The position numbers were made by a program, and so were the translations under genes. Of a DNA stretch of 49,272 nucleotides, positions 2,771-46,667 are shown in pieces. The notes under the pieces were generated by a model. That model searched no databases. It was not told the DNA's origin and saw only the letters and a program-made list of their open reading frames with translations. Origin of the DNA: Rotaria socialis. Lineage: Eukaryota. The stretch lies in assembly GCA_905331485.1 (NCBI GenBank), contig CAJNYT010000219.1:1-49272 (forward strand), given 5' to 3'. Numbering within the stretch: the first letter of the stretch is position 1; each line of letters begins with the position of its first letter.

Positions 2771-3560
2771 TTAGATATAATTATTTTCTGTAACATAAAG
2801 TTAGACAAGTAAGTAATCATTCATAAGCAGTAACAAATTGTTTTCATGACACACTTGCCAAAAAAGTCCATAGTGGTCCATAGAGTATGATTAAAAAGAA
2901 TAAGTAAATGAGCATTAATTGAATACATGGATATCGACTATTATCTAGATGTGATACATATCGGATGATGCATAAAGAATTATTCCTGTTGTGTTTTTGG
3001 TATTTTTCCTGTATTATCCTGTTAAGTCAAAATTTCTTTTAATCAAAGATAACACTTGCAATTCTACAAAAAATTAAGTAGCCTATTTAATTAATATATA
3101 TATAGCTTCTTCCATTTTACTGGATTCACATCAATTGTACAGTTAGATCGAATATAAAATGTAAATTTCTTATTTTTCTCTTTTTCTCACGACAGACTAT
3201 ATTTCGTCTACCGATGTTGCCGTTGTGATAGCATGATCTCAATAGATAGCTTCAATCAATTAATTCTAGGGTATGCGTGTCGGTGTAGATGTTATTTAGT
3301 TATTTTTGCACAATCACACCCACACCCTCAAGAAGTTAAGAAAAAGATGTTTAATAATTTCTAAGTTTTGCTCGTCAAAGCTTTGCTCGCATGTTGAATG
3401 TTCTTCTTAACTTTAATGATTGCGTGATGATTGTCTTCAAATGTTTTGTGGTAAATAAGCAAAGCTTTTAAAAAACAATGGAAGGTTTGCGGATAGTTTC
3501 CAGTTGAAAAATGAATACTTCCTGTATTGTTGTAAATAAAATCAATAACAGGGCCTTGAG

Positions 3561-3620
3561 GGTGTGGGGTGTACATATATTTATCACCTATAAATACACA
3601 TCCACACCCACACCCACACC
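3561..3620. repeat. Inverted telomeric-repeat module: (TGTGGG)n - 22-bp filler - (CCCACA)n
   Basis: gggtgtggggtgt ... tccacacccacacccacacc; a smaller cacacccacaccc tract lies at 3315-3327. Confidence 0.85.
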
Positions 3621-4279
3621 AACGATAAAAAAGGATATATAACTGTATAAATTTATCAAACAAGACTCGATGTAATACCATTTGTGTCTGAAACTGTTTT
3701 TACTTTTTTCAGAGAGCTCATATTCTAACCAAGTTTACCATTGTAAATGGTAATTAGCAACAAAGTTTAATAAGGTTATGCCATACATGGTTTTACTCAT
3801 CGATTCAAATAGTTCTCTCTCTCTCTCAAGTTAGATTAGGAAGTTCTTCTGATTAGAATTTGACTTTCTGCGTCGATTTGTACAAGCAGATTTTTCTATA
3901 GCACATAATTAGTTTCAAGTAGTACCGTTTGATCGCTCTTGGGTGTTCCTGTATTAATGGTTTTGAGCGGAACACAAATCAACATTCACATCTACAACCC
4001 ATTCGAAATATTTACAAGCCCTGTTGTTTTTTTTTGTGAAGTTTATAATAGAGGTCAATAACGACGAAAACATCACACACACAATCTTGTTTATTTAAAT
4101 CTTAATAATGTAGATTCTGGTGGGGGTTCTTTTCACGCATACCCTCCCCCCCCCCCACTAAACCCTAAATTTCTGTCTCCCCGTCTCTCTCTCTCTCTCT
4201 GTGTTGTCGATAAATCAATATGTAGTCTTGTTTTTAACAGTAGCATCCAGTCAAAACTAGTGTGATAGTATTTCGGTGA

Positions 4280-5362
4280 TCAAATTGATCTATCTATTAC
4301 TTGGTTGTTTCTTGGGCCTGTACCTATCAGCACCACAGGAATGCCTGTTTCACGTTCCATCATTTCTATATACTGCTTGGATTTTTCTGAAAGCTGATCA
4401 TATTGTGTGATACCAGCATCATCATAGTTGATATACTGTATGAAGTTAACTGCCAATTTGTTAACACCTGTCAGTTTCACTGCACGTTTGATACGATTCA
4501 CATCAATTTCAAATACCCGTCGTAATTTCTTAGTAACAGTTGTTAATTCTTTCGAAGAAAATGTCCCAATAGGGGCACCTGCTCGTTGTTCTACTTCTTC
4601 CCATGTGATTTCTTTTCCACCATCCCCTGAATATGCTTCACCTCCATCAGATTTAGCCATGTCATTAGAAATACGAATTGGATATGTACGAATGACACCA
4701 TAGATATCTCGAATATGTTTCGGAGGAATACCGTTATCTGAAAGTCCTTGCATTGGTGAACATTCTCTGCTGGTACAATGTGGATATTGAAAACCATGAT
4801 TAATACCTAATTCAAAACCTTGTGCTATTTCTAAAATACCTGTTTTTCCTTGTTCCAAATCATCGCAAGCCATTTCAGCTGTGTCTGCCAAAAAATTCGA
4901 CCACTCTCGAATGTCATGCATTAATTTATGATCTGGATGCCGCATTACTTTGAATGCACTAGCTGCACCAACACCTTTAAATGTACTTCCAGAGCGTATA
5001 TTCTCCTTTTCCCAATCACGATGTGTTTGTTGGATAACCGATGCTCTTGGATGAATAAAAAGACGGCCTTTTGCTTTTTCTTTGCCGCCAAGATACTGAT
5101 CAACTTCATTTTCAAGCTGTACCAAATCGATAACAGCGCCAGCACCTATATATAATTTCGTACTATCATTAATTAACGCTTGTGGCAACTGTTGGAAAAC
5201 ATATTTGGTGCCATCTTGTTTTATTACCGTATGACCTGCTTGTACACCATAGCTTTCAATAGCAAAATCATATTTGTGCTTTGTAGCTAAATATCCACCA
5301 ATAAGTCCTTTCCCGCACGATCCAAAGCAGAGATCAAGAATAATATCCAACGATCGTTCCAT
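4280..5362 (-). CDS. Short-form adenylosuccinate synthetase family protein (archaeal PurA / PurZ-type length), 360 aa, single exon
   Basis: Colinear with PurA throughout: 'QAGHTV' matches the NAGHT His motif, 'KGVGAASAF' the GTTGRGIGP region, 'LEIAQGFELGINHGFQYPHCTS' the EGAQG..DHGTYPYVTSS block, and the C-terminal 'EYDKLTEKGKAFI..ERVGVPV.IISTGP' of archaeal PurA aligns with 'QYDQLSEKSKQYIEMMERETGIPVVLIGTGP'. At 360 aa it has the archaeal/PurZ size, not the ~450 aa eukaryotic size. The N-terminal P-loop reads 'FGSCGKGL' where the canonical sequence is 'WGDEGKGK'. A true ATG (cat on the plus strand at 5360-5362) starts the ORF, and it has no intron. Confidence 0.8.
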   Translation of the reverse strand: MERSLDIILDLCFGSCGKGLIGGYLATKHKYDFAIESYGVQAGHTVIKQDGTKYVFQQLPQALINDSTKLYIGAGAVIDLVQLENEVDQYLGGKEKAKGRLFIHPRASVIQQTHRDWEKENIRSGSTFKGVGAASAFKVMRHPDHKLMHDIREWSNFLADTAEMACDDLEQGKTGILEIAQGFELGINHGFQYPHCTSRECSPMQGLSDNGIPPKHIRDIYGVIRTYPIRISNDMAKSDGGEAYSGDGGKEITWEEVEQRAGAPIGTFSSKELTTVTKKLRRVFEIDVNRIKRAVKLTGVNKLAVNFIQYINYDDAGITQYDQLSEKSKQYIEMMERETGIPVVLIGTGPRNNQVIDRSI

Positions 5363-6863
5363 CTGAATGCGTACCTAAAGTTGAACAAATATACATCATA
5401 TCATATAACAACAGCTATAGTGTTATTATGTGTGTACAATTGTTCTAAATAACAACGTATGATACAATACGAATGAATTCAAGTCGTAACCATTTTTCAT
5501 TATACAAAGCATTGATTGAGAGCTCTCATGTTAGTCATTTAAAAGTATCCAATTTAAAAAATAATGGTCTAAGATGATTACAAGGTAACTAAACAGATCT
5601 ATGTTTTTCTATAGGTTTCATAGGGCCTATTAGGATCTGCTAGAATCAAGCAGAGTCTAAAGGCTCGATTAAACTTCATAGAATCAACTAGCGCCCTCAT
5701 TATATGGATTCTATCTGAGGCTTTCGTGATCCCCTCACCCTAGAGATAATATATGTTGTCTTCTCTTCCATCCTCGTTCTGAAGAGTATTACAGACTCTA
5801 GCAAACCCTGTTAGATCCTGGGGGGGGGGACTATTATGACTTATTACATAAATTATATAGAATAGAATTGTTATGGAGTTTATTTGTGCCATTCAGTGAA
5901 AACCAATCTAGAAGCTAATCCCATACGTCACAGCCATCTCATCAGTTTTAATCCAAACAGAAATAAAGCTAAGACGACGAATAATATGAAAACCACAAAG
6001 CTATTTGCATGTAAATATATTACTTTAGAAGCAGTCTCGCGCTTCCCATCTCTACTATGTTTAAAATTATGATATCATCTTTCCGCTGAAAGTTGTTTTG
6101 CAGATTTTTATTGATGCATTTCAAGCAAAAGAAACATTTTTTTTAAAAAGGAATACAAACTGGGTACTATGAAAAGAAAAGTAATCCTACATTTTCTTGT
6201 TATTTCTCGTAAATTCGTTTTGATAACTAGTGTTTTGTCTTCACCTAGCTTGTATCTTTGCTAGACGTTGACATACCTCTTCGTTTGTTCTTTCGGTAGG
6301 AAGCACCTTTATATATATATATAAGTCGATATCTTGGAAATTTTCAGTATATCTACAAAACAAGGGAAAAAATCATGGCTATAATATGGATGGTATTGGC
6401 CAGCCCAGTGCTGGATCAATGTTTATTTATTTTATTTCTTTATGTCACTCTCATCATAATCAATTAGGTATCCGTATCACCAATATCAGTAACTTTATTT
6501 TTATATTTAATTAGACGGGCAATTTTCTTACTCATCGCATTTACCTATTCTTTTTCTTCTTCTCCATTAATAGACAAATATACTATATGTCTTTTACTTT
6601 TACTGACCGAAAACACAACACATGTAACATATGTTATTCGATGTCTATACAGATAATGAGGATAGAAATGCAAAAAAAAGAGAAAGAATTGGGGAATATA
6701 TGCTATCAATTGGGACACTTTCTCTTCTTTTCTCTAGTATATGTGTCTATTAATGGAGAACAAGAAAAATAATAGGTAAATACGATGAGTAAGAAAGTTG
6801 CACCATCATATTAAATAAGAACAAGAAAATTACTGATATAAGCGATACGGACATTTTATCACT

Positions 6864-6958
6864 GGGCGTGGGTGTGGGTGTGTGGATGAAGCAGAGAATA
6901 TGCAACACCCACACCCACACCCACACCCACACCCACACCCACACCCACACCCACACCC
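6864..6958. repeat. Inverted telomeric-repeat module with the longest C-strand tract, about 9 x CCCACA
   Basis: gggcgtgggtgtgggtgtgtgg - 19 bp filler - (cacccaca) for about 54 bp. Confidence 0.9.
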
Positions 6959-7575: not shown

Positions 7576-9954
7576 TTAGACTTCTTTAAATAATATTCCG
7601 TAGGGTCGAACATTCTGTGAATTGTTACACGTCCATATATCTCGATTGTGCTTTGCGATCGAACTATTATTAATTCTCACTTGAAACATAACTTGCAATT
7701 GTCGGCCATTGTATGGTGTTGGCCTAGAGTAGTGTCTACTCCCGGAATATGATGGATTAGGCGATAAATATATGCCTCGACCATGAGCAGAACCATTAAC
7801 AATAGGTATCCCATTACTACCTCCAGCAATTAAACCATTACGTAGTATAGCTAAAGCATTGGCAGTTGCAGTACCATGATAAGCTACAGGCCATGCATCT
7901 TTGCCCTCCGCTAGCCATTCAGCATTTTCATATTTTCCAAGTACTTTAATAGCCTTTCTATACCATCCGCATGGCCTTGTATAAGGTTCTGGTCCACGTT
8001 GAAAAGTTCGACCGGCATCATTTCTTGTTGTAAAATCGTAGTCGTAAGTGCTATCAAGAAACTCTTCATCTAGCATAACACGATTTACAAAACGATTAGT
8101 CCGAGCAGTAGCACTTGAAAAATGTGGAATATAAGCTGCAATTGAACTCTGATTGTATTGATAAAATCGAACGTTTTGATCATCTTCCCATCGATTTATA
8201 TCATTATCAATATTCCAATAACTTAATCGAATACTTTCAGGACATGTATATTCAGATGGTTCATTTATTATTAATAGTGGACAATGCTCTTTTTTATCAC
8301 TAAATTGAATATGATCAGCTTTGAAATGAATAACTGATATAATTCGATTATAATTTTCTTCTAATGTTCCTTTGTCCGGTACATAATCTTCGTTTTTCCA
8401 TACAGTATTTGGTAAGGATTTACTTACTACGGACTTTGATTCTGATTCTTGTGCTATTTTATATTCCATTATTCGAGAAGAATAATACATAACAGCATTA
8501 CTTTCATACATATCAGCCTTTTCACACTGAGGACACTTTATTTTTACAGTAGAATTAGACTCTTGTTTAATGGTTGATGTTAGTTTATCATTTAATCTTT
8601 TACAGCACTGGTAACAAAATAAAGCTGAACAATTTGGATTAAGACATAATCTATGTTTTTCAGGTATTAAACGACAATATAAACATTCTAAAGCCGAAGT
8701 TCCTTCCATTTCAAATTTATCAATAATTTTTGATTTACGGTATTCTGATAATCGAACTTTCTTGTAACATGTTGGACAATGATGTTCATGATTTGTATTA
8801 TCACAACTGGATTCAATACAAATGCGACAAAATACTTGTGTACAATATGGGCATTCTAAATTATCATCATTAAGTTGTGATAAACAATTTAGACATTCAG
8901 GTTTATCTATGAAAATTAATGAAGATGTTGACGGTTTATTAATTAAAGTAGCTGAATTAAAATCCGTTTCAACTGCTTGTGCTAAATTAGTTTCATTGGA
9001 TGGCGTTTCTTTTTTTGAGGATATAATTGGATTTGACTGAGTAGGATTTATTTTCTTAATGTTAACTTTATCAATCTGATTATTCAATTCATTGATTTTT
9101 GTTGATATCTTCATCCAATTGCATGATGATTTTAAATTATCGATCAAGAAATCGTTGCTCCCAATAGAAATTGTTGTTGATTTTTTATTTCCAATTGTTT
9201 GTTTTGCTTGCTGGGCGGATTTAATCACATTGATGGTCTCAACTGGAAACATTAAAATAATTGTATTATTATCCAATCGAGCTTCACATTCATAATTTAT
9301 TATAGCAAATTTATCCTTATTGATGTCTGAAACTTTTTGACAGCGATCACTAGGTTGGACTGCATTAATCTGAGATGACCCTATATCTCCGTCGACGATA
9401 GTATCAGGCTGAATATTAAATTTTAATTGAACAATAGAACCAGGATTAATTCCTAAATCCAACATTGGAATATATGCATTTTTATTTAATGAGTAATATT
9501 TTCCATTAGCCATAATTCCTTGCGCATAGCGACCGTCGCAACATCTTACTTTACAAAATTGAGATAACAATAAACGATCATAGGGTAATGCTATTAATAA
9601 TGGATAATCATATATTTGGACTGATTTGAACATGGCCGTTTTTATTAATTTAATATGTGACACGTCAGCATTAGCTGAAATGAATATTTTTTCTAGTAAT
9701 TCAAAGTAATTTTCTACATTCATTGTAATTTTTTCTGATAAATGATTAGTTTGAATCATTTTACCAATATGTTGACATAATTTATTATATCTGAGTGGAT
9801 GAATTAATTGGGACGAAGGAATAATTCCCATTTTAATTTCAGTTATTGGCCAATATCTGAGATCTTGATCTTTACTAACAGCGCTAATAGGTTTATTATA
9901 ATCAGAATTTTCACTTTCTAATTGATTAGTGTTATCGGCAATTAAATGAAACAT
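7576..9954 (-). CDS. Large (792 aa) protein with several Cys-rich zinc-finger clusters (RING/IBR/B-box-like) and a C-terminal PARP-type (H-Y) ADP-ribosyltransferase-fold segment
   Basis: Cys clusters 'CLNCLSQLNDDNLECPYCTQVFCRICIESSCDNTNHEHHCPTC', 'CLYCRLIPEKHRLCLNPNCSALFCYQCC' and 'CPQCEK'. The C-terminal 'WPVAYHGTATANALAILRNGL...GSAHGRGIYLS' matches the PARP H-G-S/T ... IL..GF ... G-x-G-I-Y-F pattern. The ORF stops before the third catalytic position of the ART triad. True ATG start. Confidence 0.6.
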   Translation of the reverse strand: MFHLIADNTNQLESENSDYNKPISAVSKDQDLRYWPITEIKMGIIPSSQLIHPLRYNKLCQHIGKMIQTNHLSEKITMNVENYFELLEKIFISANADVSHIKLIKTAMFKSVQIYDYPLLIALPYDRLLLSQFCKVRCCDGRYAQGIMANGKYYSLNKNAYIPMLDLGINPGSIVQLKFNIQPDTIVDGDIGSSQINAVQPSDRCQKVSDINKDKFAIINYECEARLDNNTIILMFPVETINVIKSAQQAKQTIGNKKSTTISIGSNDFLIDNLKSSCNWMKISTKINELNNQIDKVNIKKINPTQSNPIISSKKETPSNETNLAQAVETDFNSATLINKPSTSSLIFIDKPECLNCLSQLNDDNLECPYCTQVFCRICIESSCDNTNHEHHCPTCYKKVRLSEYRKSKIIDKFEMEGTSALECLYCRLIPEKHRLCLNPNCSALFCYQCCKRLNDKLTSTIKQESNSTVKIKCPQCEKADMYESNAVMYYSSRIMEYKIAQESESKSVVSKSLPNTVWKNEDYVPDKGTLEENYNRIISVIHFKADHIQFSDKKEHCPLLIINEPSEYTCPESIRLSYWNIDNDINRWEDDQNVRFYQYNQSSIAAYIPHFSSATARTNRFVNRVMLDEEFLDSTYDYDFTTRNDAGRTFQRGPEPYTRPCGWYRKAIKVLGKYENAEWLAEGKDAWPVAYHGTATANALAILRNGLIAGGSNGIPIVNGSAHGRGIYLSPNPSYSGSRHYSRPTPYNGRQLQVMFQVRINNSSIAKHNRDIWTCNNSQNVRPYGILFKEV

Positions 9955-10016
9955 AATTAATTGTAAAACTGAAATGGACTCATTTTCTGATAATAGTGTT
10001 TTTGATTCTTTACGTT

Positions 10017-10688
10017 CTAATAATAATAATCGGATTTATGAATAATTAATAATCGAAATGGTGGTAATGCAACACGATTTAATCGAAAAGAAAGTTTTAA
10101 AATTTCTTCGTATAATTCTTTTGCTTCATTTTCTAATGAAATCATTATATTTTCATATACTAATACATAATCAGCAAGATCAACAGGTATTGTGTCAATG
10201 TTATCACTATATAGTATAGTGGATAATATCAGATGAGCTGCACCAATAGTCATAGATTTCGGCAACCAAATCGATTTTAATTGACTATTTTTTGTTGTAG
10301 AAGATAATGAATTTAATGATTTAACTGAATAAATTTCATATTTAACCATACCAGCATCAGTGGTCTGATTTATATTATTAACAGTAATAAAATTACTAAA
10401 AGTTGTATAGAGATCATTGACAAATTCGTGTAAGATTGGATTGCCTTTTAAGTCTAAGACTTTTGTTTGTGCTTGTTGTTGAGATTTCTCAATTGTTTCT
10501 TTAACTATTTTACCGTGATCTTTTGATGAAAATGAATTAAAACAATACTTTTCACTTTCAAATAATGCTTTTAATATATTGACAGTTGTTGGGGTGTCAT
10601 AGATAATATTACTTATTGTGTTGTTTCGGTTATTCGCATTAAGATCATTAGTATCGCTTTGATTGGGAACAGTGGAGGAATTACCCAT
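10017..10688 (-). CDS. 223-aa ORF with an MGNSS N-terminus (N-myristoylation-type motif); unknown function, possibly a separate upstream gene or 5' partner of the 7576..9954 gene
   Basis: Uninterrupted ORF on the same strand immediately upstream of the 792-aa ORF. True ATG start. No recognisable domain. I could not find a usable donor that joins it in frame to the downstream ORF. Confidence 0.35.
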   Translation of the reverse strand: MGNSSTVPNQSDTNDLNANNRNNTISNIIYDTPTTVNILKALFESEKYCFNSFSSKDHGKIVKETIEKSQQQAQTKVLDLKGNPILHEFVNDLYTTFSNFITVNNINQTTDAGMVKYEIYSVKSLNSLSSTTKNSQLKSIWLPKSMTIGAAHLILSTILYSDNIDTIPVDLADYVLVYENIMISLENEAKELYEEILKLSFRLNRVALPPFRLLIIHKSDYYY

Positions 10689-11451
10689 TTTTTATTCGTT
10701 CGTAGGCAGAAAATCTGAAATTGTAGTCAAACTATAAAAGTAATACTAACATCGGATTAACTATAAAAATTTTGTGCTAATGATTCGAACAGAAACTCTT
10801 CTAATCGTCGTCCTTCTTCTATCTTAAGAAATTAAAAGACAAAAAGACCGCTTGATAACAGATAAAGAAGAATATTAAAATAAATAGAAGGATGTTTTCA
10901 TATTATCTAATCATTGCTGCTAGATCCTAATAGATATATTTGGCATTTGAATAGATAATTTTAACTTGTGTTCAATATCATATAACACTGTTGTATGGAA
11001 AAAATTTTTATTGCCAACGAAAAATCGTCAACCCACTTGTTTGAACAAGAATTTAAATATTTCAATTTTTTATTGTAGTGTTTTTTATGGGTCACCCTGT
11101 ATATAAACGAAACGAAAAGAAAAATGTAATATGAATCATTACTAACAACAAGAGACATGAAGAGAAACTCAAGGACACGCATATATAGTGAAATCTATAA
11201 TAAAGAAAGTACCAATAGTCTCCTCTGAACACAGTACAGATCATAACTATCTAATATAGATGAATAAATTATGAATATATCAGTGGCTGGCATGTGTAAG
11301 ATTTGCATAACTTGATGCAACCTAATTCACATATTCTTCAGTTCTATCTGAGTCGATTGAATGTAAAAGCTTTTCAGAATAAAGTAAAAATCATGCCAAC
11401 TTTAAAAAATTATTTCCTATGTAATGTTAACTGGCTGTCTCTTGTTTCAGC

Positions 11452-11542: not shown

Positions 11543-12551
11543 TTAGAGATCTGAGCTACGTAAACTCCAGAGTTTAATTATCCATTTGTTTGCGATTTCA
11601 TCAAAGTGGCACGATGTTACCTTAGCAGGAAAACCATCGAAAATCAAAAGTTCTTGTTCATCCGGATAATTTGAATATGGGGACATATCCAGAGAGCCGG
11701 TATCTTTTTCGAGGTCAATGACAAAAAGAAAGTTGCTGCCAAAGAATTCGGCCACGTTCGGATTAAGAGTAGTTGAGGTAAACGCCGGTAATTGGATTTT
11801 TCTTTCAGAGACAACGCATAGTCGAAATTGTTCAATTTGTTCGTTAGTCATCGTTGCTCCTCGATATACTATCATATTAGTGGGAGTAAAATTCATAGCT
11901 GAATTCAATAGTACAGCAAATGGGCCGTTTGGCCATCCATTCACCTTCTCGTTGCTTCCCCACCTTTTTCGCTTCGATTATAAATCCTTCCGCTGCCTTT
12001 TCTATCCACATCTCAAGTACTGACTGACAAGTGATACCTTTCTCCCAACCAACGCCGTAATGAGAACAAGCTTCTTGAACAAAATCAGGAGTTGTTGGTT
12101 CAATTTGCCAGTTTATGAAACTGTTCGAAGGCAAAACTGAATCTTCCAAGAAACGTTCCGCTCTTACTCGTTTCTCTCGTTCATCCTTGTTACGATCAAC
12201 TATACGTTTCACTGGCCGTTGTTTCTTTTCGTCATTATTAGAGATTTGCATAGAACGTGCAAAAACGATATGATAGTCGTCGAGAAGAGCTTCTGGTAAG
12301 CCTTGTTGGAATGCTTCTTCGATGATTTCAGTTTCTACATCGGTGTATTTTCGCCATTCAGCAGGTTCTGCAAAACAGAAAGGAAGCGCATTAGATTGCC
12401 ACAGCCACTCTATATACTGCTTGGCAATCAATGCAGTAGTAGTCATATACGCAACGACCAAACGGTAGCAGTAAAGATTAGATGTGATAGTAAAAAGAAA
12501 GAAAATGAAAGATATATTTCGTTTCATTATTGACTCTTTTTGTTGTTCCAT
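11543..12551 (-). CDS. Secreted R-S-E clade mono-ADP-ribosyltransferase (arginine-specific type), two exons (12551..~11945 and ~11898..11543), ~320 aa
   Basis: The 224-aa ORF has a signal-peptide-like N-terminus (MKRNISFIFFLFTITSNLYC) and the helical N-domain. The 133-aa ORF carries the catalytic triad: 'VYRG' (R), 'FTSTT' (S-T-T) and 'DEQELLIFDG' ([Q/E]-x-E). The two ORFs overlap in different frames. A 46-nt segment with a GTGAAT donor and a TTCAG acceptor removes the overlap and joins the frames exactly (...KQRE-A-MNFTPTNMIVYRG...). The second ORF's 'M' is GTG, which is consistent with it being internal to an exon. Confidence 0.75.
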
Positions 12552-17899: not shown

Positions 17900-18720
17900 T
17901 TATTGTGCAGCGGTAGGCTTTTCATTTAAGGAAATGTGCTCCAACCGCATTAGACCATCCATACGTATAGGCTTCTGTTTTTGTTTACTTTCAATACAAA
18001 CGCCATTAGCTACAGTACGAAATAGCTGCGTAATATCTTTATTTGGCTTTGCTATGTGTTTCAATAGATGTTTGGCGAATAATCCATTTCTATCAGTAGT
18101 ATCACCATCAGAGGCAATTTGATTTGGGCTACATGCAAAGACGACGTAGCTGCCATCCGGTACTTCCATTGCATGTAAACTAATACCTTCGAGCTTCGCT
18201 AAAACAACGATACGTGATACATCTTATACGGCACAATTTTGACTAGTTTTTGCTACCAACCGTTTCTTTGCCTTTTGTTTTTTGGATAGTGTACTCGACA
18301 ACAATCTAGTATAAATACCGTCACAAAGGATGGATTTTTTTGTCTTAATTGATGAAGAGTGCGTTCGGCACAAGTACAATAATCCTCAACATCTTCATCA
18401 GATTTAATTAAATCATCATCTACGTGAGCCAAATATGTTCTGCCATTAACGTGATAGCCATGGCCAGAAAAGTAGAACATAACCAAATCGCCGTCAACGA
18501 TTGTCTCAGCAAAAGCGGATATTGTAGAGGCCATTTGTGACTTTGTAAGATCACGTGCCGTTTTTACCTGAAATTTAATATTTCGTAGCACGTTACTAAG
18601 ATCATTAGCATCATTGATACAATGACGAAGTCTATCTTCAGATTGAATATAATTCTGGTTTCCGATAACTAATGCTATTTTACGGCGAGGCCTTGAGGCA
18701 GTAGAATTCAGAGTAGCCAT
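17900..18720 (-). CDS. Caspase-family (peptidase C14-like) protein: p20-like part (18253..18720) plus p10-like part (17900..18169), split by a short intron or frameshift
   Basis: 'KIALVIGNQNY...CINDANDL...FQV', 'FYFSGHGY' (catalytic His-Gly) and 'ILDCCR' (catalytic Cys, D-x-C-R type) sit in the first ORF. 'GSYVVFACSPNQIASDG...NGLFAKHL' in the second ORF is the typical small-subunit motif. The open frame upstream of the second ORF extends to '...RIVVLAKLEGISLHAMEV'. A candidate 62-nt intron (weak GTTGGT donor, TTGTTTTAG acceptor) would join the two parts. Confidence 0.6.
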
Positions 18721-21699: not shown

Positions 21700-22010
21700 A
21701 ATTGATCGAGCTGATGAGTTGTAGTCATTAGAAACAATCGATTGTTAATCAAACAATTCGATTGTAAAATATTTGGATTTCAATCGGTAGAGAAGATTTT
21801 AATCGATTGTAAAATTAAAATCAGTTTCAACTGCTGTAATTAGAAATAACCGATTGATAATCTATCAATTTGATTTTCCAAGATTGAAATTTCAATTGAT
21901 TGGGAAGATTTCAATCAATTGTTCGATTAAAATCAGAGTTTAAGGGGTAAAATCATCAATAATTGATAGAATAGATTAAAACTTGAATCAATTGCTGGAT
22001 TTTAGTCGGA
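21700..22010. repeat. Satellite-like low-complexity block built from CAATCGATTG / TTGATTGAAA-type units
   Basis: Repeated 'caatcgattg', 'aatcaattg', 'gattgaaat' and 'ttcaatcg' motifs over about 300 bp. Confidence 0.55.
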
Positions 22011-25832: not shown

Positions 25833-27707
25833 ATGACTTCATTAACGAAAAATCTTGAAGGTCTGACTATTGTATGGCTTGATGTTGATCGTATTCATCA
25901 AAACACCGATGATTATTTTGATACGAAAAATCGTCTACGACAATGCAATAATTATATAGAAATATATCATGATCCAAATGAGTGTATTCATGGTATAATA
26001 GCGAATGGATACGTTTTTCTAATCGTTTCTGGTTCAATCTGCGAAACATTTATTCCGCTGATTTTTGAAATCAAACAGATCGTATTTATTTACGTTCTAT
26101 ATTCGGATAATCAATTGACGGACACCTGTGAACTAAAAACTATTTCAAAACTTCATGGAATATTCTCAAGTAAAAACCAACTTATTGAAAAACTGAAACA
26201 AGACGTCAAATCATATTTGAAGAGTTTGCCACTAACATGTATCGTCAATGAAAAGTCAATTCGTGCTTTAAACAAAGAATATTCTACGTTTATGTGGACT
26301 CAATTGCTTATGGACGTTTTAATTCAAATACCTCAAACAGATCGTGCAAAAATGATGATGTTAGAAGATTGCCGATTGCATTATGCTGATAATAAAGCTC
26401 AATTAGATGATATTAACGAGTTTCAAGAAAAATATGAACCAGACTTTGCAGTTTGGTGGTATACACGTGAGAGTTTCGCATATAAACAATTAAACCAAGC
26501 ACTACGTACACAAGATATTGACATTATTTTTAAATATCAATTTTTTATAAGAGATCTTTATGTACTATTGAAAGAATTATATGAAGAATCTATGCCATCC
26601 TTAGAAGAAATATCGATTGTCTACCGTGGCCAACATATCAATTGTGATGAATTGGAAAAAATAAAAAATAATGTGAACGGTCTTATTTCAATGAATTCAT
26701 TTTTATCAACAACTCGAAACAAGAATCGAGCTTTAATATCCGCCGGTGATGGTTCAAATAGGCCCTCGCTTGAATCCATCTTATTTGAAATTACGATTAA
26801 TAAAAATGTTGCTGCTAAAACTAAACCATTCGCTGACATTACAAAGATGAGTCAATTTGGCAAGGCAGAAGAAGAAATACTATTATCGATTGGAAGTATA
26901 TTCAAGATTCAGTCAGTTGAACAGTTAGCTGAAAATGCTCATGTTTGGGACGTTAAGCTAATATTAAATGAATCAGTGGTGATTAATGAAATAGACATGT
27001 TATTCAATTATTTCAAAATGAATTCAACTACAAGTATATCGAATGTCGGTACATTAGGTTTACTATTAGGAGAGATGGGAGAATATGAAAAAGCGGAAAA
27101 ATATTATCAAATGATGCTTGATGAATTATCAACAGATCATTGCGGAGTTCCAATAATATTAAATAATATGGGAGTATTATACAATGATATGGGTAATGAT
27201 GAAAAAGCATTAGAATATTATAAGAAATCATACGAAAGTTATAAAATGCAAAACGTATCAGAAAATGATCTTCTCTTAGCGAATTTATATCATAATATGG
27301 GTTCATTGTATTATGAAAATGAGTATAATAAAACAGCATTGAAATATTTTAAAAAAGCTTTTAAAATTTGTAATAATAATTCTACGCTACCCAGTCTTTT
27401 ATTATCTGCAACATTATATACAGACGTGAGTGGAATATATCAAGATAATGAAGATTCTGTTAATGCATTGGATCAGTTGCAACACACATTTGAAATCCAA
27501 AAAAGAATTCTACCATCAACTCATTTCAGAATCGCTGCAACATACAATAACATAGGAAGTGTTTATCTTTGTAAAGGAGATTATGCAAAAGCATTAGAAA
27601 ACTTTGAAATAGCCTTGAATATTGGATTAAAATCTTTGCCAGCCGATCATGAACATATTCAAACATATCGTGAAAATATAAAACATGCTAAAGAAAGAAT
27701 AAAGTAA
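25833..27707 (+). CDS. ART-TPR protein: R-S-E mono-ADP-ribosyltransferase domain followed by about 4 TPR repeats, with an uncharacterised N-terminal domain; 624 aa
   Basis: 'ISIVYRGQ' (R), 'SFLSTTRN' (S-T-T) and 'GKAEEEILLSIGS' (E-x-E). The C-terminal TPR-like repeats include 'LGEMGEYEKAEKYYQMML', 'MGVLYNDMGNDEKALEYYKKS', 'MGSLYYENEYNKTALKYFKKAF' and 'IGSVYLCKGDYAKALENFEIAL'. True ATG with an in-frame TAG three codons upstream. Confidence 0.85.
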   Translation: MTSLTKNLEGLTIVWLDVDRIHQNTDDYFDTKNRLRQCNNYIEIYHDPNECIHGIIANGYVFLIVSGSICETFIPLIFEIKQIVFIYVLYSDNQLTDTCELKTISKLHGIFSSKNQLIEKLKQDVKSYLKSLPLTCIVNEKSIRALNKEYSTFMWTQLLMDVLIQIPQTDRAKMMMLEDCRLHYADNKAQLDDINEFQEKYEPDFAVWWYTRESFAYKQLNQALRTQDIDIIFKYQFFIRDLYVLLKELYEESMPSLEEISIVYRGQHINCDELEKIKNNVNGLISMNSFLSTTRNKNRALISAGDGSNRPSLESILFEITINKNVAAKTKPFADITKMSQFGKAEEEILLSIGSIFKIQSVEQLAENAHVWDVKLILNESVVINEIDMLFNYFKMNSTTSISNVGTLGLLLGEMGEYEKAEKYYQMMLDELSTDHCGVPIILNNMGVLYNDMGNDEKALEYYKKSYESYKMQNVSENDLLLANLYHNMGSLYYENEYNKTALKYFKKAFKICNNNSTLPSLLLSATLYTDVSGIYQDNEDSVNALDQLQHTFEIQKRILPSTHFRIAATYNNIGSVYLCKGDYAKALENFEIALNIGLKSLPADHEHIQTYRENIKHAKERIK

Positions 27708-28478: not shown

Positions 28479-30061
28479 TTATTCTGCTAGTTCTGCTTCT
28501 ATAAGACGAACACAATGACTAAGTCCATCTTCATTTTTAATTAATTCGCTAATCTTTTTAGCACTGGTTTTATAAATGTTATAATTGTCAATCATAAGAT
28601 CACGAATTGCATTAGTTAAATTCTTCACATTGGTGTGACGTATGGAAATAGATCTTGGTCCTAATCTATTGATAAATATTCGATCACCGTTAAATGGTTG
28701 ATCGGCTCCAAAAGATAATACTAATGTAGGCAATCCATACCAAAGACTTGCATGTGTAGTACCGGCACCACCATGATGAATTGTTGCTGACATATAAATA
28801 AATAACCAAGAATGTGGAATGGCATGTGTCAAATAAAATATATTATCAGCTGTGGATAACGTACTGGCATCTGCGCTTTTAAATCCAACTAATGACATAA
28901 CTGCTTTACAATTATTTCTATCAAGAGCCAATAAAATTTTGCGTATAAATTCCATTTGTTCATCTGCTCCAAACATGGTACCCATCATTGATCCAAGACC
29001 AACATAGATAATCTTCTCGTTTTTCCATTTGGTCAAGAAGTCAAGAATAGGAGTTGGCGGTTGAAAATTCTCATTTTCTTTTTCAAGTATTGGACCGACC
29101 ATATGATCATTTTCGTGCCAATCGGATGGACATGGTATTAAATATTTGGAATAGATCGTTGCAGATACCAATGGCTTACGAAACAGGGATTGAGTCATAC
29201 GTTCATAATTTAATTTCATTGGTGGTAAATCATTAGTGGCACGAAGTTCATTGAGTTTATCATTATAGATGCTTGACATAGCATAGTCGACTATTTTCCA
29301 TTTCAATAAATTGGTCCACTTGAACAAACTACCACTTTTCCCACCTAAACCAGGCGGCGAAAAATGAACTGTTCGTATCACTGGGAATGTGTAGATTCCA
29401 ATTGCTTTAATATTAGGAAATTTCTCAATACAACTTAATCCAGGGAAAATAGATGCAACTGTTAGAACAATTAAATCAGCGTCTTTTACACCAGACAGAA
29501 TTCCATTAAACCATTCTTCAATCGCTGGTTGAAATATACGTTTTACTAATCCCATTTTTAAAATACTTGGATTCCGTCGGAGCTCGATTCCTTCTGGGCT
29601 TGTCGATAAAAAATGTTCTAGGTCACCACCGATTTCAACTACATCGAAACCTGAATAAACAAATAGAAGGTGATATCATGGAAATATTAATGAAAGAACT
29701 CTTCAATATTAGATTTAGATTTATATTGTGCGATGATACAATGATAATATGGGAAAGTATCAAGCGATTGTTGGATTTAAGATTGATAGTACTTACCAGC
29801 AGCTTTTACTATGTCTTGATAACGTCGATGTACACCAAGCCATACGATATGTCCACGTTTTTTAAGTTCTTCGGCAAGTATCATAAAAGGTTTCACATCT
29901 CCTAGAGTGCCAGTCGCCGGAATAAAAATCTTTTTAACTCTAGTATTCTTGCTACTGTCATTAATTTCTTTGGCAATCGAGCTTTCTTCCTGGCTTTCCA
30001 AGTCCATGAGATGTGAATCTTCACTTATATTTCTAAAATTGAAATCAATAATGTGTTTCAT
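28479..30061 (-). CDS. GT1-family UDP-glycosyltransferase (sterol 3-beta-glucosyltransferase / macrolide-GT type), two exons (30061..29797 and 29650..28479), ~480 aa
   Basis: Exon 1 'KKIFIPATGTLGDVKPFMILAEELKKRGHIVWLGVHRRYQDIVKAAG' is the GT-B N-terminal signature. Exon 2 carries 'HHGGAGTT' and 'GLPTLVLSFGADQPFNGDRI' (C-terminal UDP-sugar motif). A GTAAGT donor at 29796 and a TTATTCAG acceptor at 29651 give a 146-nt intron. That joins the frames exactly: ...VKAAG|FDVVEIGGDLEHF..., matching the UGT51-type 'GLEFFPIGGDP'. There is no GRAM/PH N-terminus. The track start at 30079 is TTG; the first ATG is at 30061. Confidence 0.8.
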
Positions 30062-33100: not shown

Positions 33101-36100
33101 ATGAAACCAACTACTACCTCTACTTCATTATTATCACCATTCAATGGCAAAAGCATTGTACTCGAACTTGGCCATGAAGTAGGTTTCAAAGCTAAGCAAG
33201 AATTGATCAATTATTTACGAGAACAGCAAGCACATATTTCGTATATTTTGACAGCCAGTGTATGTTCGCGTGTTATTTCATCAAACATGTGGTTGGAGTT
33301 ACCTTTCTTTTAGACTGATTATGTTCTAACTACGACTAATGTAGATAGCTACAAAATACGTCGTGCCAAACGGCTTGGCTTACCGGTAGTGAATGTTGAA
33401 TATGTACACAAATGCCGTTGTTTGCGACCTGGTCAAACACCTATTGATATTAGCAAATTTATTATCAAGTCAGCAGAAGATCAAGAGAACTTTATAAAAA
33501 CCGGCACTATTTCCATGCAAGGTATTAGAAGTTCTTGTAAAAATCATGTCAGACATCTTTGTTTATTAGAAACTCGAGTAAACGTGACTAAAGCCAATAG
33601 ATTCGATTTGACTAAAATCAAGCTGTGGAATTCGGACGATGTAAATTTGCCTCGTTTCGATGAGCTGGCACATTGTGAGCTTGGCAGATGGGCGATTTTC
33701 AAAGTAGATTTGTATTCATTTCTAGCTGTTATTCTCTTATATTTCTATTGTTCATAGCAGGAAACCAATGATAATTCAAGTGTATTTTTTGTTCTTGAAC
33801 TTCAAGTTATTCCCGAAGAGTACTATGATCGAACAACGAGTGATTATCAACTACGATTTCGATATGAAAAACAGACTATTACCGACGAAGTTTCACAACA
33901 CGATAAAAAAGTATTGGTACAATACGCATTCAGTGATGATCCAAACGAACAACAACAGTTGTTTGCGTCGTACTATTATCGTGTGGCTGCAATGCCACGT
34001 ATAACACGAATTAGTGAGATGTTACCTAACAAATTAGGATCAAAATTATTATTACGTGTATGCAAATGACATTGATAAAAGAATATAATTTAGTTTTTAC
34101 ACATAAAAGAAATTGTTTCTAGTCTTTATTTACACAACGTATCGACACACAAATACTCGATGAAAATGTATGTCAATTGATTGAATCGATTTGGCTAGAA
34201 TCGATTGGTGATCTGAATAAAATTTTGAGCATATCACCTGAATCGATTACTCTCAAAACAGTATGTGTACACTTTCATATTACTGTGTGTTCTAAACATC
34301 CAAATAGATCATTGAGGCCGAAGCTGCACTACTCGAACTCAAAGCGACCAACAATCCTGCTGCTGCACTTCGTTTCTATTCACTTATACCACATCGACCA
34401 GAGTACAATATTGATCTAATCAAGAATCATCGAGCGTTGATCGAAAAAATAGACCTATGTCAGGTATGTCAATCTTGTTTTAAATTGTTTTACTTGATCT
34501 TTTCCCCGTTCAGATGCTTCGAGATATGCATACAGTCAACGAACTGACCAATTGGAATGTTAAAGCACCAATCGAAGCTAAATATCGAGCATTGAAATGT
34601 CATATTGAAACAGTAGCGAGTTCAACATTCGACTTTAAGAATATTGCTAAGCTCATTCAGTCGTCGACTAATAGGCGAGAGAATTTAACATTCTATTTCA
34701 TAATGATTGTTTTTTGTTTATTAGTGGTGAAGAAATTTTAATTCACAACATATTCAGTGTGACTAGACAGACAGATGCACTCAATTTTCGTACAACACTC
34801 TCCCACCAATGGCAGCTGTTTCATGGATCGAAATATGTCAATTTTCTTGGGATTCTTTCACGGTAAAATACTCATTTCGTTCTCTAGACAACATTTATAT
34901 GGCGGTTGTGCGTACGTTTAGTGGTTTAGTCATGCCTAAAATTGTAGTGGACCAATTGGGCGTTGAACGTACTGACGTGGGTTGTCTCGGTTATGGGATA
35001 TATTTTTCAGATTCTGCTTCGACGTCTTTGAAATATACGACAGCAAGTAGAATACGGCCAGGTCGTCGTTTGTTATGCATTTGTCAAGTAGCACTTGGTG
35101 AATCAGCCAATTATTATTTGTTTTCGCCGACTCTCACCAAACCTCCTGATGGTTTTCATAGTACACATGGAGTCAAACAAACAGAAGAAAATCAATCAAA
35201 GTTCACTGTAAGTGAAATGCTAGAAGGATTTATTAATTATGATACTATTTCACAAATCTACTTTGCGTTCTATCGAAATAGGATAATGAATATGCCATCT
35301 ATCAAGTTGAACAACAACGTTTACTTTATGTTGTGGAAGTTTCATGGTCGCCGATTGATGCTCTCAGTATCACTTTAGAACGACTACCTATTGTTCACCA
35401 TCAAGAACATGCATTGAAATTAAGTGAGCACGGTAATGATAAGCTATGATTTCTTGTTGGAATAAACAATTGACTAAATTTTTCTCAAAATATTCTAGCT
35501 GAAGTTCCATTAACGATGGAGGATGAAATCATTGAAGTAGCCGAACAAGACTATGGTTTGATATGTTCATCATCGAGAGACCTTGTACCACTTAAATCAT
35601 TTCATATTCGTGCTCAAATTGTTGATGTTACAGTTGAAGTAATTATATCTACGTTTCGATTGAAGTAAAATACTAATTCCTCATGTTTCTATCTAATGAA
35701 AAGGTTGTTCTCTATCAAGTCTATCATAATACGAGTTCGATACCTATCGAAGCTAAGTATGTGTTTCCTCTTGATGAAAATTCAACTGTATGCGGTTTCG
35801 AAGCACATATTAACAATAAAGTTATCAAAGGTGTCGTTAAAGAGAAAGAACAAGCCAAACGCGAGTATAGAGAAGCAATTGAAAAGGGTCATGGCGCCTA
35901 TTTAATGCATCAAGAAGAAGCTCAAGTGTTCAGCGTTGCGGTTGGTAATTTGCCAGCGCATACTGAAGTTATCATCAAAATAATTTATGTTGCCGAATTA
36001 GAAATCGAAAATGATGACATTATTTTTCGCCTTCCAGCCAAAATGACTTCATGGCAATCGAAAAAAGCTGTCGAAACCAAAGATCAATCGATTTTACGAT

Positions 36101-45835: not shown

Positions 45836-46031
45836 CCACAAAACACGTGTCCATTTTTATTTAACATTGAACAAATCAAAGTGAATTGATTTTTTCCAAT
45901 CTTTGCAATTTATATCCTACTCTCTTTATGTTGCCACAAAACACGTGTCCATTTTTATTTAACATTGAACAAATCAAAGTGAATTGATTTTTTCCAATCT
46001 TTGCAATTTATATCCTACTCTCTTTATGTTG
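45836..46031. repeat. Perfect tandem duplication, 2 x 98 bp
   Basis: 'ccacaaaacacgtgtccatttttatttaacattgaacaaatcaaagtgaattgattttttccaatctttgcaatttatatcctactctctttatgttg' occurs twice, head to tail, with no mismatch seen. Confidence 0.85.
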
Positions 46032-46667
46032 CTAAGGCTTTTCTCTGCAATCATTTATCTGCTAACACAAGTGAAAAACTTGACAAAGCGATCGGATTCT
46101 ATCAACAAATAAGTCAACGTAATCGTATCTATTGTAAACAATTAGAATTGAGCGATTCATCATGGGACATGTTTATTCAACGTATAGTTATCGGCATCGA
46201 TCATGGCGATAACTAAAAATTGATTTTCAGTGCCATCGATTGTTTTAATAATTTAACCATTACACTTTTATTATTCTAATCATGAATCACATCGATATTG
46301 TTTATTCTTGAGCACAAAAAAAAGCAAAGCATTCAAGCGTGCCGGTGGAAATGTGTGAGGGTAATAGTAAACATAAGGCGTACATCCTCATGTTTTTCAT
46401 GAGTCAGGTGTTGGAAAAAGTAGTTGCAAGAATCCTCAGTGCAAATTTTGGCGCGTTAGTAATTATGCTTGGCTTACGACTAAGAGGCATTGCACGTAAG
46501 CCACGACCAATTGCCACAGAACGTTGCTCAATGAATTTCACTGATTTGAGTGATCTTTTTACTGTGGGTAGATACCATAAAGTTATGGAGAGTCCCAAAA
46601 TTTCAACTCAAACGAATAAGCCGTTCCCGAAATATGAGTTTTGAAAATATGGAAATTTCAAAAAAAG

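Follow-up and report, generated by a model that had tools for sequence, protein, structure and literature searches.

Can a gene of the kind with which bacteriophages make 2-aminoadenine (Z) be at home in an animal genome and, if so, where did it come from and what might it do there? PurZ-type enzymes and Z-containing DNA are known to occur naturally only in phages (PMC13128860, 2026), and our literature search retrieved nothing that links PurZ or adenylosuccinate synthetase (AdSS) to rotifers, or PurZ to any eukaryote. The question is raised by an intact, intronless open reading frame (ORF) of 360 codons, which occupies positions 4280-5362 of the reverse strand (ATG start; TGA stop at 4280-4282) in a 49,272-nucleotide stretch of DNA from the bdelloid rotifer Rotaria socialis (contig CAJNYT010000219.1 of assembly GCA_905331485.1; the whole stretch is referred to below as the window). 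The evidence presented here makes it very probable that this is a phage-derived PurZ-group gene that is maintained by selection in rotifers. It also favours, with distinctly more reserve, the view that the product is a domesticated phage PurZ-type enzyme, which probably converts 2'-deoxyguanylate (dGMP) into the precursor of the Z deoxynucleotide dZMP. The enzyme family is already known; what is new is the animal host, the loss of the phage partners, the long-term constraint and a phage-like donor that can be identified.

Membership of the AdSS superfamily follows from the match to Pfam family PF00709 (Adenylsucc_synt; E=8.3e-42, 143.8 bits at a cut-off of 27). A chance feature is excluded because a 1083-nucleotide ORF at about 33% G+C gives a Pfam E-value of about 1e-41; the same interval contains no other long ORF. 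The AlphaFold model, built from 67 homologues (pLDDT 91.3, pTM 0.91, with low confidence at residues 231-250 only), has the AdSS fold: in Foldseek, the query-based template modelling (TM) score is at least 0.80 to 6FM1, 7ODX and 7VF6, and the TM values are 0.86/0.91 against Pyrococcus horikoshii PurA (5K7X) and 0.80/0.84 against PurZ of phage phiVC8. These results bear out the initial annotation, made from the letters of the sequence, which had described an intronless, 360-aa homologue of the short type of PurA. The fold itself was rejected as a means of telling PurZ from PurA, all short-type structures matching about equally. The more specific family models all score below their cut-offs: the NCBIfam PurZ model NF038379 (amino_Aden_PurZ) gives 218.1 bits (cut-off 300), the archaeal PurA model NF003295 218 bits (cut-off 368), so that the two tie at 218 bits, and the PurA equivalog TIGR00184 150 bits (cut-off 395.55). 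PHROG 1211 was matched at E=3e-64; its label in PHROGs, '2-aminooxy adenylosuccinate synthetase', is that of PurZ in phage records. The closest solved relatives are the phiVC8 PurZ structures 6FM1/6FKO/6TNH (E about 3e-42), with the P-loop F-G-S-T-G-K-G-L, followed by P. horikoshii PurA, S-2L PurZ (7ODX) and PurZ0 (7VF6). In databases, the protein is named 'unnamed protein product' or 'adenylosuccinate synthetase'.

The residues of the active site were compared in a MAFFT alignment with the proteins of Escherichia coli, P. horikoshii, phiVC8, S-2L and PurZ0, the roles of the S-2L PurZ residues being taken from PMC8342488. The P-loop F-G-S-C-G-K-G-L aligns with W-G-D-E-G-K-G-K of E. coli, so that the catalytic Asp13 is replaced by Ser15 (codon 5318-5320) and Glu14 by Cys16, both replacements having been read correctly in the initial annotation. 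Ser occupies the Asp13 position in all 139 non-PurA relatives of a 143-sequence alignment, which consists of these relatives plus PurA, and, according to PMC12884076, 100% of the PurZ-group sequences of phages have Ser in place of the Asp. Because of this uniformity, the Ser P-loop is an inherited family trait and not an animal innovation. Cys16 is not essential, since Adineta ricciae carries Ser at that position.

All substrate contacts that are unique to PurZ are present, S15, T274 and Q309 corresponding to S23, T273 and Q308 of S-2L, which upholds the earlier proposal of PurZ as the closest precedent. In the dGMP pocket, 11 of the 15 residues are identical to those of S-2L (the others being F13, as in phiVC8, Q41, H195 and I231); in the adenine pocket, all five are (N306, F307, Q309, G349 and P350). 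The catalytic His44 and the dimer-partner Arg141 are kept. The guanine-specifying motifs T/S-K-x-D of PurA and T/S-M-x-D of PurZ0 are absent, N306-F307-I-Q309 being found instead; in the alignment, the motif NFQ was counted 102 times and NFN 28 times, with TMD/TKD in PurA and PurZ0. The aspartate loop reads T-K-K-L-R-R where PurA has (A/T)-(T/V)-T-G-R-R-R-R, and the tip of the corresponding S-2L loop, T273-T276, touches aspartate (PMC8342488). The V-G-x-G-P-F-P-T-E block of PurA is replaced as well. The PurA blocks that had been listed initially are the canonical versions, which the protein does not contain to the letter; in their place it has QAGHT, GSTFKGVG, EIAQGFELGINHGFQYPHCTSRE, TTVTKKLRRVF and LIGTGP. 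Between R230 and T275 the protein has a segment of 46 aa, compared with 26-28 aa in PurA and 29-35 aa in PurZ. I231 is equivalent to S-2L V241, which blocks the ribose 2'-OH (PMC8342488, from which the role of the PurZ insertion is also taken).

Comparison with the known systems delimits the position of the protein further. With classical PurZ (phiVC8, 6FM1/6FKO/6TNH; S-2L, 7ODX; Acinetobacter phage SH-Ab 15497), it has in common the short-type AdSS fold, the Ser of the G-S-x-G-K-G P-loop, the T-T-V-T-K-x-x-R-R aspartate loop, the N-F-x-Q/N pocket, which predicts ATP or dATP as the phosphate donor, and residues C196-T197, R230, Q181, R141 and H44 (numbering of the window protein). It differs from classical PurZ in that it is only 31-34% identical, falls in a separate clade and scores below the NCBIfam PurZ cut-off, has Cys for Thr after the Ser, Q41 for Asn and I231 for Val in addition to the longer segment after R230, and is encoded by an animal genome without datZ, mazZ or dpoZ in the loci examined. 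PurZ0 (Gordonia phage Archimedes, 7VF6; Arthrobacter, Microbacterium and Streptomyces phages) likewise has Ser at the Asp13 position and is the most basal Ser-bearing clade in our tree. However, it is 26-30% identical to the window protein and has G-S-E-A-K-G and T/S-M-x-D, neither of which the window protein has, which therefore is not a PurZ0 member. P. horikoshii PurA (PH0438; 5K7X/2D7U), the best structural match and of similar length, has the same two deletions relative to the bacterial and eukaryotic PurA proteins of about 430-450 aa, but it keeps G-D-E-G-K-G, T-G-R-R-R-R and T-M-L-D, motifs that the window protein does not have, and uses inosine monophosphate (IMP) and GTP. The gene is a separate branch of the PurZ group, neither classical PurZ nor PurZ0; it is not filed as classical PurZ because it fails on the NCBIfam score, on the clade to which it belongs and on gene context.

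Where the gene came from was addressed by neighbour-joining (NJ) trees based on Kimura distances with bootstrap resampling; NJ was the only method, and was applied to 25 sequences (1000 replicates) and, alongside, to 143 sequences. The seven rotifer-type sequences, i.e., those of R. socialis and R. magnacalcarata, two A. ricciae copies and three from AT-rich environmental contigs, form a clade in 99.9% of the replicates of the 25-sequence tree. The phage-like sequences are monophyletic in 0.4%, and a group of the rotifer sequences plus P0003, P0138 and P0004 that excludes P0005 and P0006 is recovered in 96.7%. Thus, the rotifer clade is nested within phage-like proteins that are 75-85% identical to the rotifer ones, and the 143-sequence tree agrees. 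A bootstrap value of 100% separates the Ser-bearing group as a whole from PurA of E. coli and P. horikoshii, which places the gene in the PurZ group. Rooted with E. coli PurA, the branches follow the order P. horikoshii PurA, PurZ0, two Woesearchaeota sequences, classical PurZ, the P0012 phage group and, last, a large clade with the P-loop A-G-S-C-G-K-G-K together with the rotifer/donor clade, the deeper nodes being weakly supported (37-87%).

The gene has its nearest relatives outside the metazoans, and the recipient sequences fall inside the donor clade, which identifies it as a horizontal acquisition by bdelloids; because of the nesting, the transfer went from a phage-like element to the rotifer. 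On the trees, a single transfer before the Rotaria and Adineta-type lineages separated would account for the distribution most simply. The initial annotation had left the choice between a neofunctionalised and a horizontally acquired gene, of archaeal or viral type. The horizontal part stands, as the gene lies inside a phage-like clade, and so does the viral part, the donor being a bacteriophage-like element; the archaeal origin does not, nor does a change of the active site within the animal, as the Ser was inherited. Of the outcomes that it had named as decisive against it, neither occurred: no clustering with metazoan PurA was seen, and the Asp has not been retained.

The donor lineage is still recognisable. 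A protein search gave seven matches at 75-84% identity, four of them non-rotifer, after which identity drops to 45%. The window protein shares 74-82% identity with P0003, P0004, P0005 and P0006. Three of these, P0003, P0005 and P0006, come from metagenome contigs of 31-303 kb with 41-47% G+C, where the gene belongs to a tightly packed module, all on one strand, that recurs from sample to sample and encodes, in order, a PD-(D/E)XK exonuclease, a Sak4-like annealing protein, a DUF669 protein resembling single-stranded DNA-binding proteins, an ATPase, DUF2201, PolA with a proofreading domain, sometimes the large subunit of ribonucleotide reductase, DUF3267, the synthetase, an intein-containing C5 DNA methylase, thymidylate kinase, adenylate kinase, a fusion of 331-333 aa between a nucleoside deoxyribosyltransferase (NDT)-like domain and dUTPase, YdjM, TpcC and TcpE. 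P0004, on a 1.6-kb contig of 36% G+C, has the upstream 148-aa gene of the module. The donor synthetase genes are preceded by TTGAC(A/C)...TATAAT-like -35 and -10 boxes and by GGAGG 6-9 nucleotides ahead of the ATG, and hairpin terminators were present in two of the three downstream flanks examined. Because the donor contigs carry bacterial promoters, Shine-Dalgarno sequences and terminators, the donor is a bacterial virus or virus-like element. No structural genes were found within 21 kb of donor sequence examined, and a scan of IMG/VR for the donor returned only a relative at 36% identity.

Matches that cover 80% or more of the NDT-dUTPase fusion came from 110 phage records and, among the matches listed, these are mainly Arthrobacter phages, which have PurZ0-type 'PurA-like' genes, and Streptomyces phages. 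A fusion of this kind (DmtZ-DutZ-like architecture) and PolA near the synthetase are features that the donors have in common with PurZ0-type phages, for which the architecture has been described (PMC12884076). The donor elements may have Z-DNA, and they may possibly represent a third type of Z-genome system. A combination of an N-F-x-Q synthetase with the NDT-dUTPase fusion typical of PurZ0 phages was seen at donor loci L097/L098/L113/L116 (gene at 10001-11083), L094/L115 and L096; contigs of the lineage of 116-303 kb are Ga0207655_1000174, Ga0105244_10000045 and Ga0207866_1000009. Like other horizontally acquired genes of bdelloids (for general background, see PMC3499245 and PMC4632278), the gene is non-metazoan, intronless, situated among telomeric repeats and ameliorated in base composition. 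It differs from them in that its donor lineage, which is phage-like, can be named at 75-85% identity, and this makes it an unusually clean case of phage-to-animal transfer.

What the protein might do in the animal can be outlined as follows. From a lineage of large uncultured phage-like elements, whose replication module also encodes PolA, kinases and the NDT-dUTPase fusion as in Z-genome phages, the gene passed, probably by a single horizontal transfer, into a bdelloid ancestor. There it lost its bacterial promoter and ribosome-binding site, gained the base composition of rotifers, remained intronless and came under purifying selection. If the gene is expressed, the enzyme would bind dGMP, a substrate to which the conserved pocket gives somewhat better than an even chance, and move the gamma-phosphate of ATP or dATP to O6; aspartate would then displace the phosphate, yielding N6-succino-2-amino-2'-deoxyadenylate (dSMP). 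Rotifer adenylosuccinate lyase and nucleotide kinases could convert dSMP into dZMP and dZTP. PurZ phages rely on host enzymes for the subsequent steps (PMC8342488), and because Z took the place of about 24.7% of the A in yeast engineered with phage PurZ, dATPase and DUF550 (PMC13128860), a eukaryotic lyase, kinases and polymerases can complete the route. That bdelloids do make 2-aminoadenine deoxynucleotides, and that measurable Z replaces A in some DNA, be it their own, that of a certain tissue or stage, or that of invading elements, is a step further, and we regard it as clearly unlikely. If true, it would be the first natural synthesis of the Z base in a cellular organism, and in an animal at that; the question of whether any cell makes Z becomes testable in an animal that can be cultured.

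Several observations weigh against the reading of the gene as a domesticated PurZ-type enzyme acting on dGMP. The score lies below the cut-off of the PurZ model, and the rotifer/phage-like clade stands apart from both classical PurZ (phiVC8, S-2L, JeffCo, BCSR129) and PurZ0. The enzymes that have been assayed all fall outside the rotifer/phage-like F-G-S-C-G-K-G-L clade and the neighbouring A-G-S-C-G-K-G-K clade. Near the substrate, S-2L N49 and V241 are replaced by Q41 and I231, and the insertion after I231 is longer. No homologue of DatZ, MazZ, DutZ, DmtZ or DpoZ was found in the 49-kb window or the other rotifer loci examined, including the DatZ/MazZ-like partners that had been suggested for a search: S-2L DatZ and MazZ and Archimedes Dut and PolA gave nothing at E<=1, and of 20 donor-module proteins compared by tblastn with the window plus seven further loci of rotifer type or from R. 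socialis, only the synthetase matched. The linkage to datZ, mazZ (or DUF550) and a Z-selective polymerase that goes with classical PurZ is thus absent from these loci, and purZ without its partners gave lower substitution in E. coli (PMC8342488). On the donor side, PolA is not specifically of the DpoZ kind, its best solved match being E. coli Klenow and its phage matches reaching about 26% identity at most. The gene has been found in only some bdelloid species, and it is unmentioned in the supplements of the bdelloid horizontal transfer papers PMC11258130, PMC3499245 and PMC4632278.

The alternative that survives best, which we consider unlikely but a genuine contender, is that of an active, selected enzyme working on another nucleotide (dIMP, GMP, XMP or damaged (d)GMP) in salvage, pool sanitation or conflict and defence. 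It draws on the A-G-S-C-G-K-G-K clade (81 of the 143 sequences), which occurs in metagenome-assembled genomes of gut Bacillota, 'Tenericutes' and the candidate phyla radiation and in Bacillus phage vB_BpsS-140, and which holds the nearest non-donor relatives of the window protein (40-46% identity). This clade shares the Ser-Cys P-loop, I231, the long insertion and N-F-x-Q with the window protein, but differs in being encoded chromosomally in house-cleaning arrays and in the NUDIX fusions of about a quarter of the members listed. Because this nearest large outgroup, chromosomal in bacteria, has NUDIX, HD, ITPase and dUTPase genes around it and frequently forms NUDIX fusions, the subfamily may serve a function other than Z-DNA, which counts as a further point against a role in Z synthesis. 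The substitutions peculiar to the subclade and the longer insertion beside the sugar-discriminating residue are in line with such a function, as are the lack of Z-cluster partners in the rotifer loci examined and the PARP-like, WWE-ADP-ribosyltransferase, caspase and tetratricopeptide repeat (TPR) genes that are its neighbours in R. socialis. On the other hand, the residues that touch the 2-amino edge of guanine and the aspartate loop in solved PurZ are kept, the phage-like donors pair the gene with PolA and with the NDT-dUTPase fusion typical of Z-genome phages, and there is no positive evidence for any alternative substrate, so that a PurZ-type reaction on dGMP is still preferred. Two uncharacterised branches of the family are exposed by the comparison, one of large phage-like elements in which a PurZ-type ATP pocket goes together with accessory genes of the PurZ0 type, and a big one of chromosomal genes of gut bacteria, often NUDIX-fused.

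Selection within the animal is indicated by pairwise Nei-Gojobori estimates of non-synonymous (dN) and synonymous (dS) divergence between the copies of R. socialis, A. ricciae and a further one of rotifer type. They gave dN 0.09-0.10, dS 0.9-1.2 and dN/dS 0.09-0.10, ratios that are approximate because dS is near saturation, a point to be set against the reading of long-term constraint. Because a dN/dS of about 0.1 applies along paths inside the monophyletic rotifer sequences, the purifying selection took place within the animal; a PurZ-group gene has thus been fixed in animal genomes, under strong purifying selection across two bdelloid families. All seven rotifer-type sequences are intact, barring one single-base frameshift. 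The rotifer copies have 15-29% G+C at third codon positions (GC3), compared with 22-53% for the donors, and no Shine-Dalgarno sequence or bacterial promoter. R. socialis and A. ricciae share instead a (T/A)TTAG-GTA motif 11-12 nucleotides before the ATG, where the TTTAG of R. socialis is a putative splice acceptor. These findings bear on a second alternative, namely that the gene is a passenger, foreign DNA lodged in a fast-evolving region rich in telomeric repeats, unexpressed or unused, and intact merely through recency. The density of such repeats, flanks that are not syntenic between R. socialis and A. ricciae, the patchy occurrence among bdelloid species and the silence of the three supplements speak for it. 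We nonetheless hold it to be very unlikely in view of the low dN/dS at a dS of about 1 between Rotaria and Adineta-type copies, the intactness of the seven sequences (one with a probably erroneous frameshift), the conservation of all catalytic residues, the ameliorated base composition and replaced bacterial signals, and the retention of two diverged copies in A. ricciae. The frameshift concerns L111 (ENA contig ctg115543_2x_l), where an extra A at about 1900-1910 shifts the frame after G-H-T and its removal restores 360 aa; it is probably a sequencing error rather than the mark of a pseudogene, because the contig is labelled 2x.

A third alternative, an ordinary short archaeal-type AdSS isozyme that makes adenylosuccinate from IMP, aspartate and GTP, would agree with the Pfam and UniRef name, with P. 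horikoshii PurA as the closest fold and with the equal scores of the archaeal PurA and PurZ models. It is, however, highly improbable: Asp13 has become Ser, T-K-x-D has become N-F-x-Q, T-G-R-R-R-R has become T-K-K-L-R-R and V-G-x-G-P-F-P-T-E is replaced, the score is far under every PurA equivalog cut-off, and the Ser-bearing group is separated at 100% from E. coli and P. horikoshii PurA.

That the gene resides physically in rotifer DNA is evident from shared flanks, telomeric repeats, eukaryote-type neighbours and the species assignment. The exact protein is annotated in R. socialis (CAF3338393.1 and others); its 90% cluster also includes R. magnacalcarata proteins, and A. ricciae carries two copies, of 83% identity. 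The gene together with its neighbours, a PARP-like (poly(ADP-ribose) polymerase-like) gene of about 1037 aa and a gene with WWE and ADP-ribosyltransferase domains, was found in at least five R. socialis assemblies, one of which is GCA_905331295.1 (Rs_AK15), from Nowell et al. 2021. The gene is flanked on both sides by (CCCACA)n/(TGTGGG)n stretches (Table 1), as had been noted at the outset, and more of them occur elsewhere in the window; TGTGGG is the bdelloid telomeric repeat (PMC7943196). Caspase, TPR, PARP, VIT-VWA and glycosyltransferase domains are encoded by other ORFs of the window. Although its nearest relatives are phage-like, contamination by phage DNA mis-joined to rotifer contigs, to which we assign a vanishingly small probability, is excluded because the locus and its neighbours are identical in these independent assemblies, the gene recurs in R. 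magnacalcarata and A. ricciae, no other gene of the phage module is present in the loci compared, GC3 and codon composition are rotifer-like, bacterial signals are missing and the gene has rotifer telomeric repeats on either side at a distance of 0.7-1.5 kb.

Table 1. Features of the PurZ-group gene and its immediate surroundings (positions in the window; residue numbers of the window protein)
Feature	Position	Strand	Basis
PurZ-family coding sequence, 360 aa, short-type AdSS fold, intronless	4280..5362	-	ORF, PF00709, PHROG 1211, exact R. socialis match
P-loop F13-G-S15-C16-G-K-G-L20 (TTT GGA TCG TGC GGG AAA GGA CTT)	5303..5326	-	sequence, alignment
Q41-A-G-H44-T45 block: catalytic His and triphosphate contacts; equivalent to S-2L N49-A50-G51-H52-T53	5228..5242	-	alignment, PMC8342488
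Residues 232-253, lineage-specific insertion following R230-I231	4604..4669	-	segment lengths
Aspartate-binding loop, PurZ form, T274-T-V-T-K-K-L-R-R282	4517..4543	-	alignment
Adenine-binding donor pocket N306-F307-I-Q309; equivalent to S-2L N305, F306, Q308	4436..4447	-	alignment; roles from PMC8342488
Proximal upstream region TTTAG-GTACGCATTCAG directly before the ATG; splice-acceptor-like, no Shine-Dalgarno	5363..5393	-	blastn to 5393, side-by-side upstream sequences
AATAAA, candidate polyadenylation signal, about 185 nt past the stop	4090..4095	-	consensus match only
Bdelloid telomeric repeat stretch, CCCACA-type, about 660 nt past the 3' end of the gene; a further short one at 3309-3330	3597..3620	.	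tandem repeats, repeat families
Telomeric block, upstream at about 1.5 kb from the gene, with TGGGTG x3 (6863-6882) facing (ACACCC) x9 (6905-6958)	6863..6958	.	tandem repeats

Similarity between the R. socialis and A. ricciae loci covers the ORF and about 30 nucleotides upstream, and the flanking genes differ, as regions of this kind would lead one to expect; synteny between the two was therefore rejected, as similarity stops there. Carriage by a transposon was likewise rejected: no terminal inverted repeats enclose the gene, and what was found was limited to telomeric repeats and a hairpin element unrelated to it. A long inverted repeat (6471-6585/6735-6851) adjoins the telomeric block and resembles a hairpin or a miniature inverted-repeat transposable element; its core arms are 67 nucleotides long and 93% complementary, with a spacer of 149 nucleotides, and are accompanied by a flanking 43-nucleotide pair. 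A fusion of the synthetase in a 953-aa R. magnacalcarata model (P0131/P0122) proved to be an artefact, in which the synthetase is merged with the unrelated 597-aa product of a neighbouring gene; proteins of 597 aa appear in the same 90% cluster because this merged model pulls them in.

In the Adineta-type loci, a divergent thymidylate-kinase-like gene of about 198 aa lies head-to-head with the synthetase (L099, 6153-8640; L093, 3270-3812; L111, 777-1373; all on the reverse strand); it is absent from the R. socialis window. In A. ricciae it is split into more than one ORF, so that an intron is likely. Co-acquisition as a phage kinase was rejected, since it matches neither the donor Tmk nor phage records, and its database relatives are nearly all rotifer-type, except for one at 43% identity on a 2.5-Mb contig. 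The gene could be a functional partner of the synthetase, as a nucleoside monophosphate kinase.

Members of the A-G-S-C-G-K-G-K clade were seen at loci L007 (10001-11110), L011 (10001-11533) and L012-L063, in gut 'Clostridia/Bacilli/Tenericutes' genomes, for example in Clostridium sp. CAG:575, and also in some DPANN genomes. Their same-strand arrays contain genes for NUDIX, HD, Ham1/ITPase, MazG, NTPase, NT5C, dUTPase, dCMP deaminase, uracil-DNA glycosylase, GNAT and methyltransferase proteins. Many of the proteins are fused to an N-terminal NUDIX domain, with a length of about 510 aa, and one is fused to a GNAT domain.

Domains of the conflict or immunity type are abundant near the gene in the window: a WWE domain together with ADP-ribosyltransferase, caspase, a TPR protein of 624 aa and a gene with PARP, VIT and VWA domains, which is vault-PARP-like and split over several ORFs (positions 11877-12551 and 18253-18720 on the reverse strand, and 25833-27707 and 34809-38538 on the forward strand). 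The upstream PARP-like gene is a single 1037-aa ORF in four R. socialis assemblies; here and in GCA_905332275.1, an in-frame TAG splits it into ORFs of 792 aa and 223 aa (7576-9954 and 10017-10688, reverse strand). A short intron between the two (9955-10016) was rejected, as the stop codon precedes the only GT; an allelic stop seems the likelier cause of the interruption. A second gene that may be of bacterial origin is the single ORF at 28479-29555 (reverse strand), which encodes an EryCIII-like/UDPGT-type glycosyltransferase of 358 aa. Homopolymers bracket the synthetase gene, C11 at 4148-4158 (about 120 nucleotides past the stop) and G10 at 5820-5829 (about 460 nucleotides before the start), with a TC/CT dinucleotide run at 4184-4200. 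Elsewhere, the window contains a 112-bp tandem repeat at 21727-21936 (1.9 copies, 77% identity) and a perfect 98-bp tandem duplication at 45836-46032 (2.0 copies, 100% identity).

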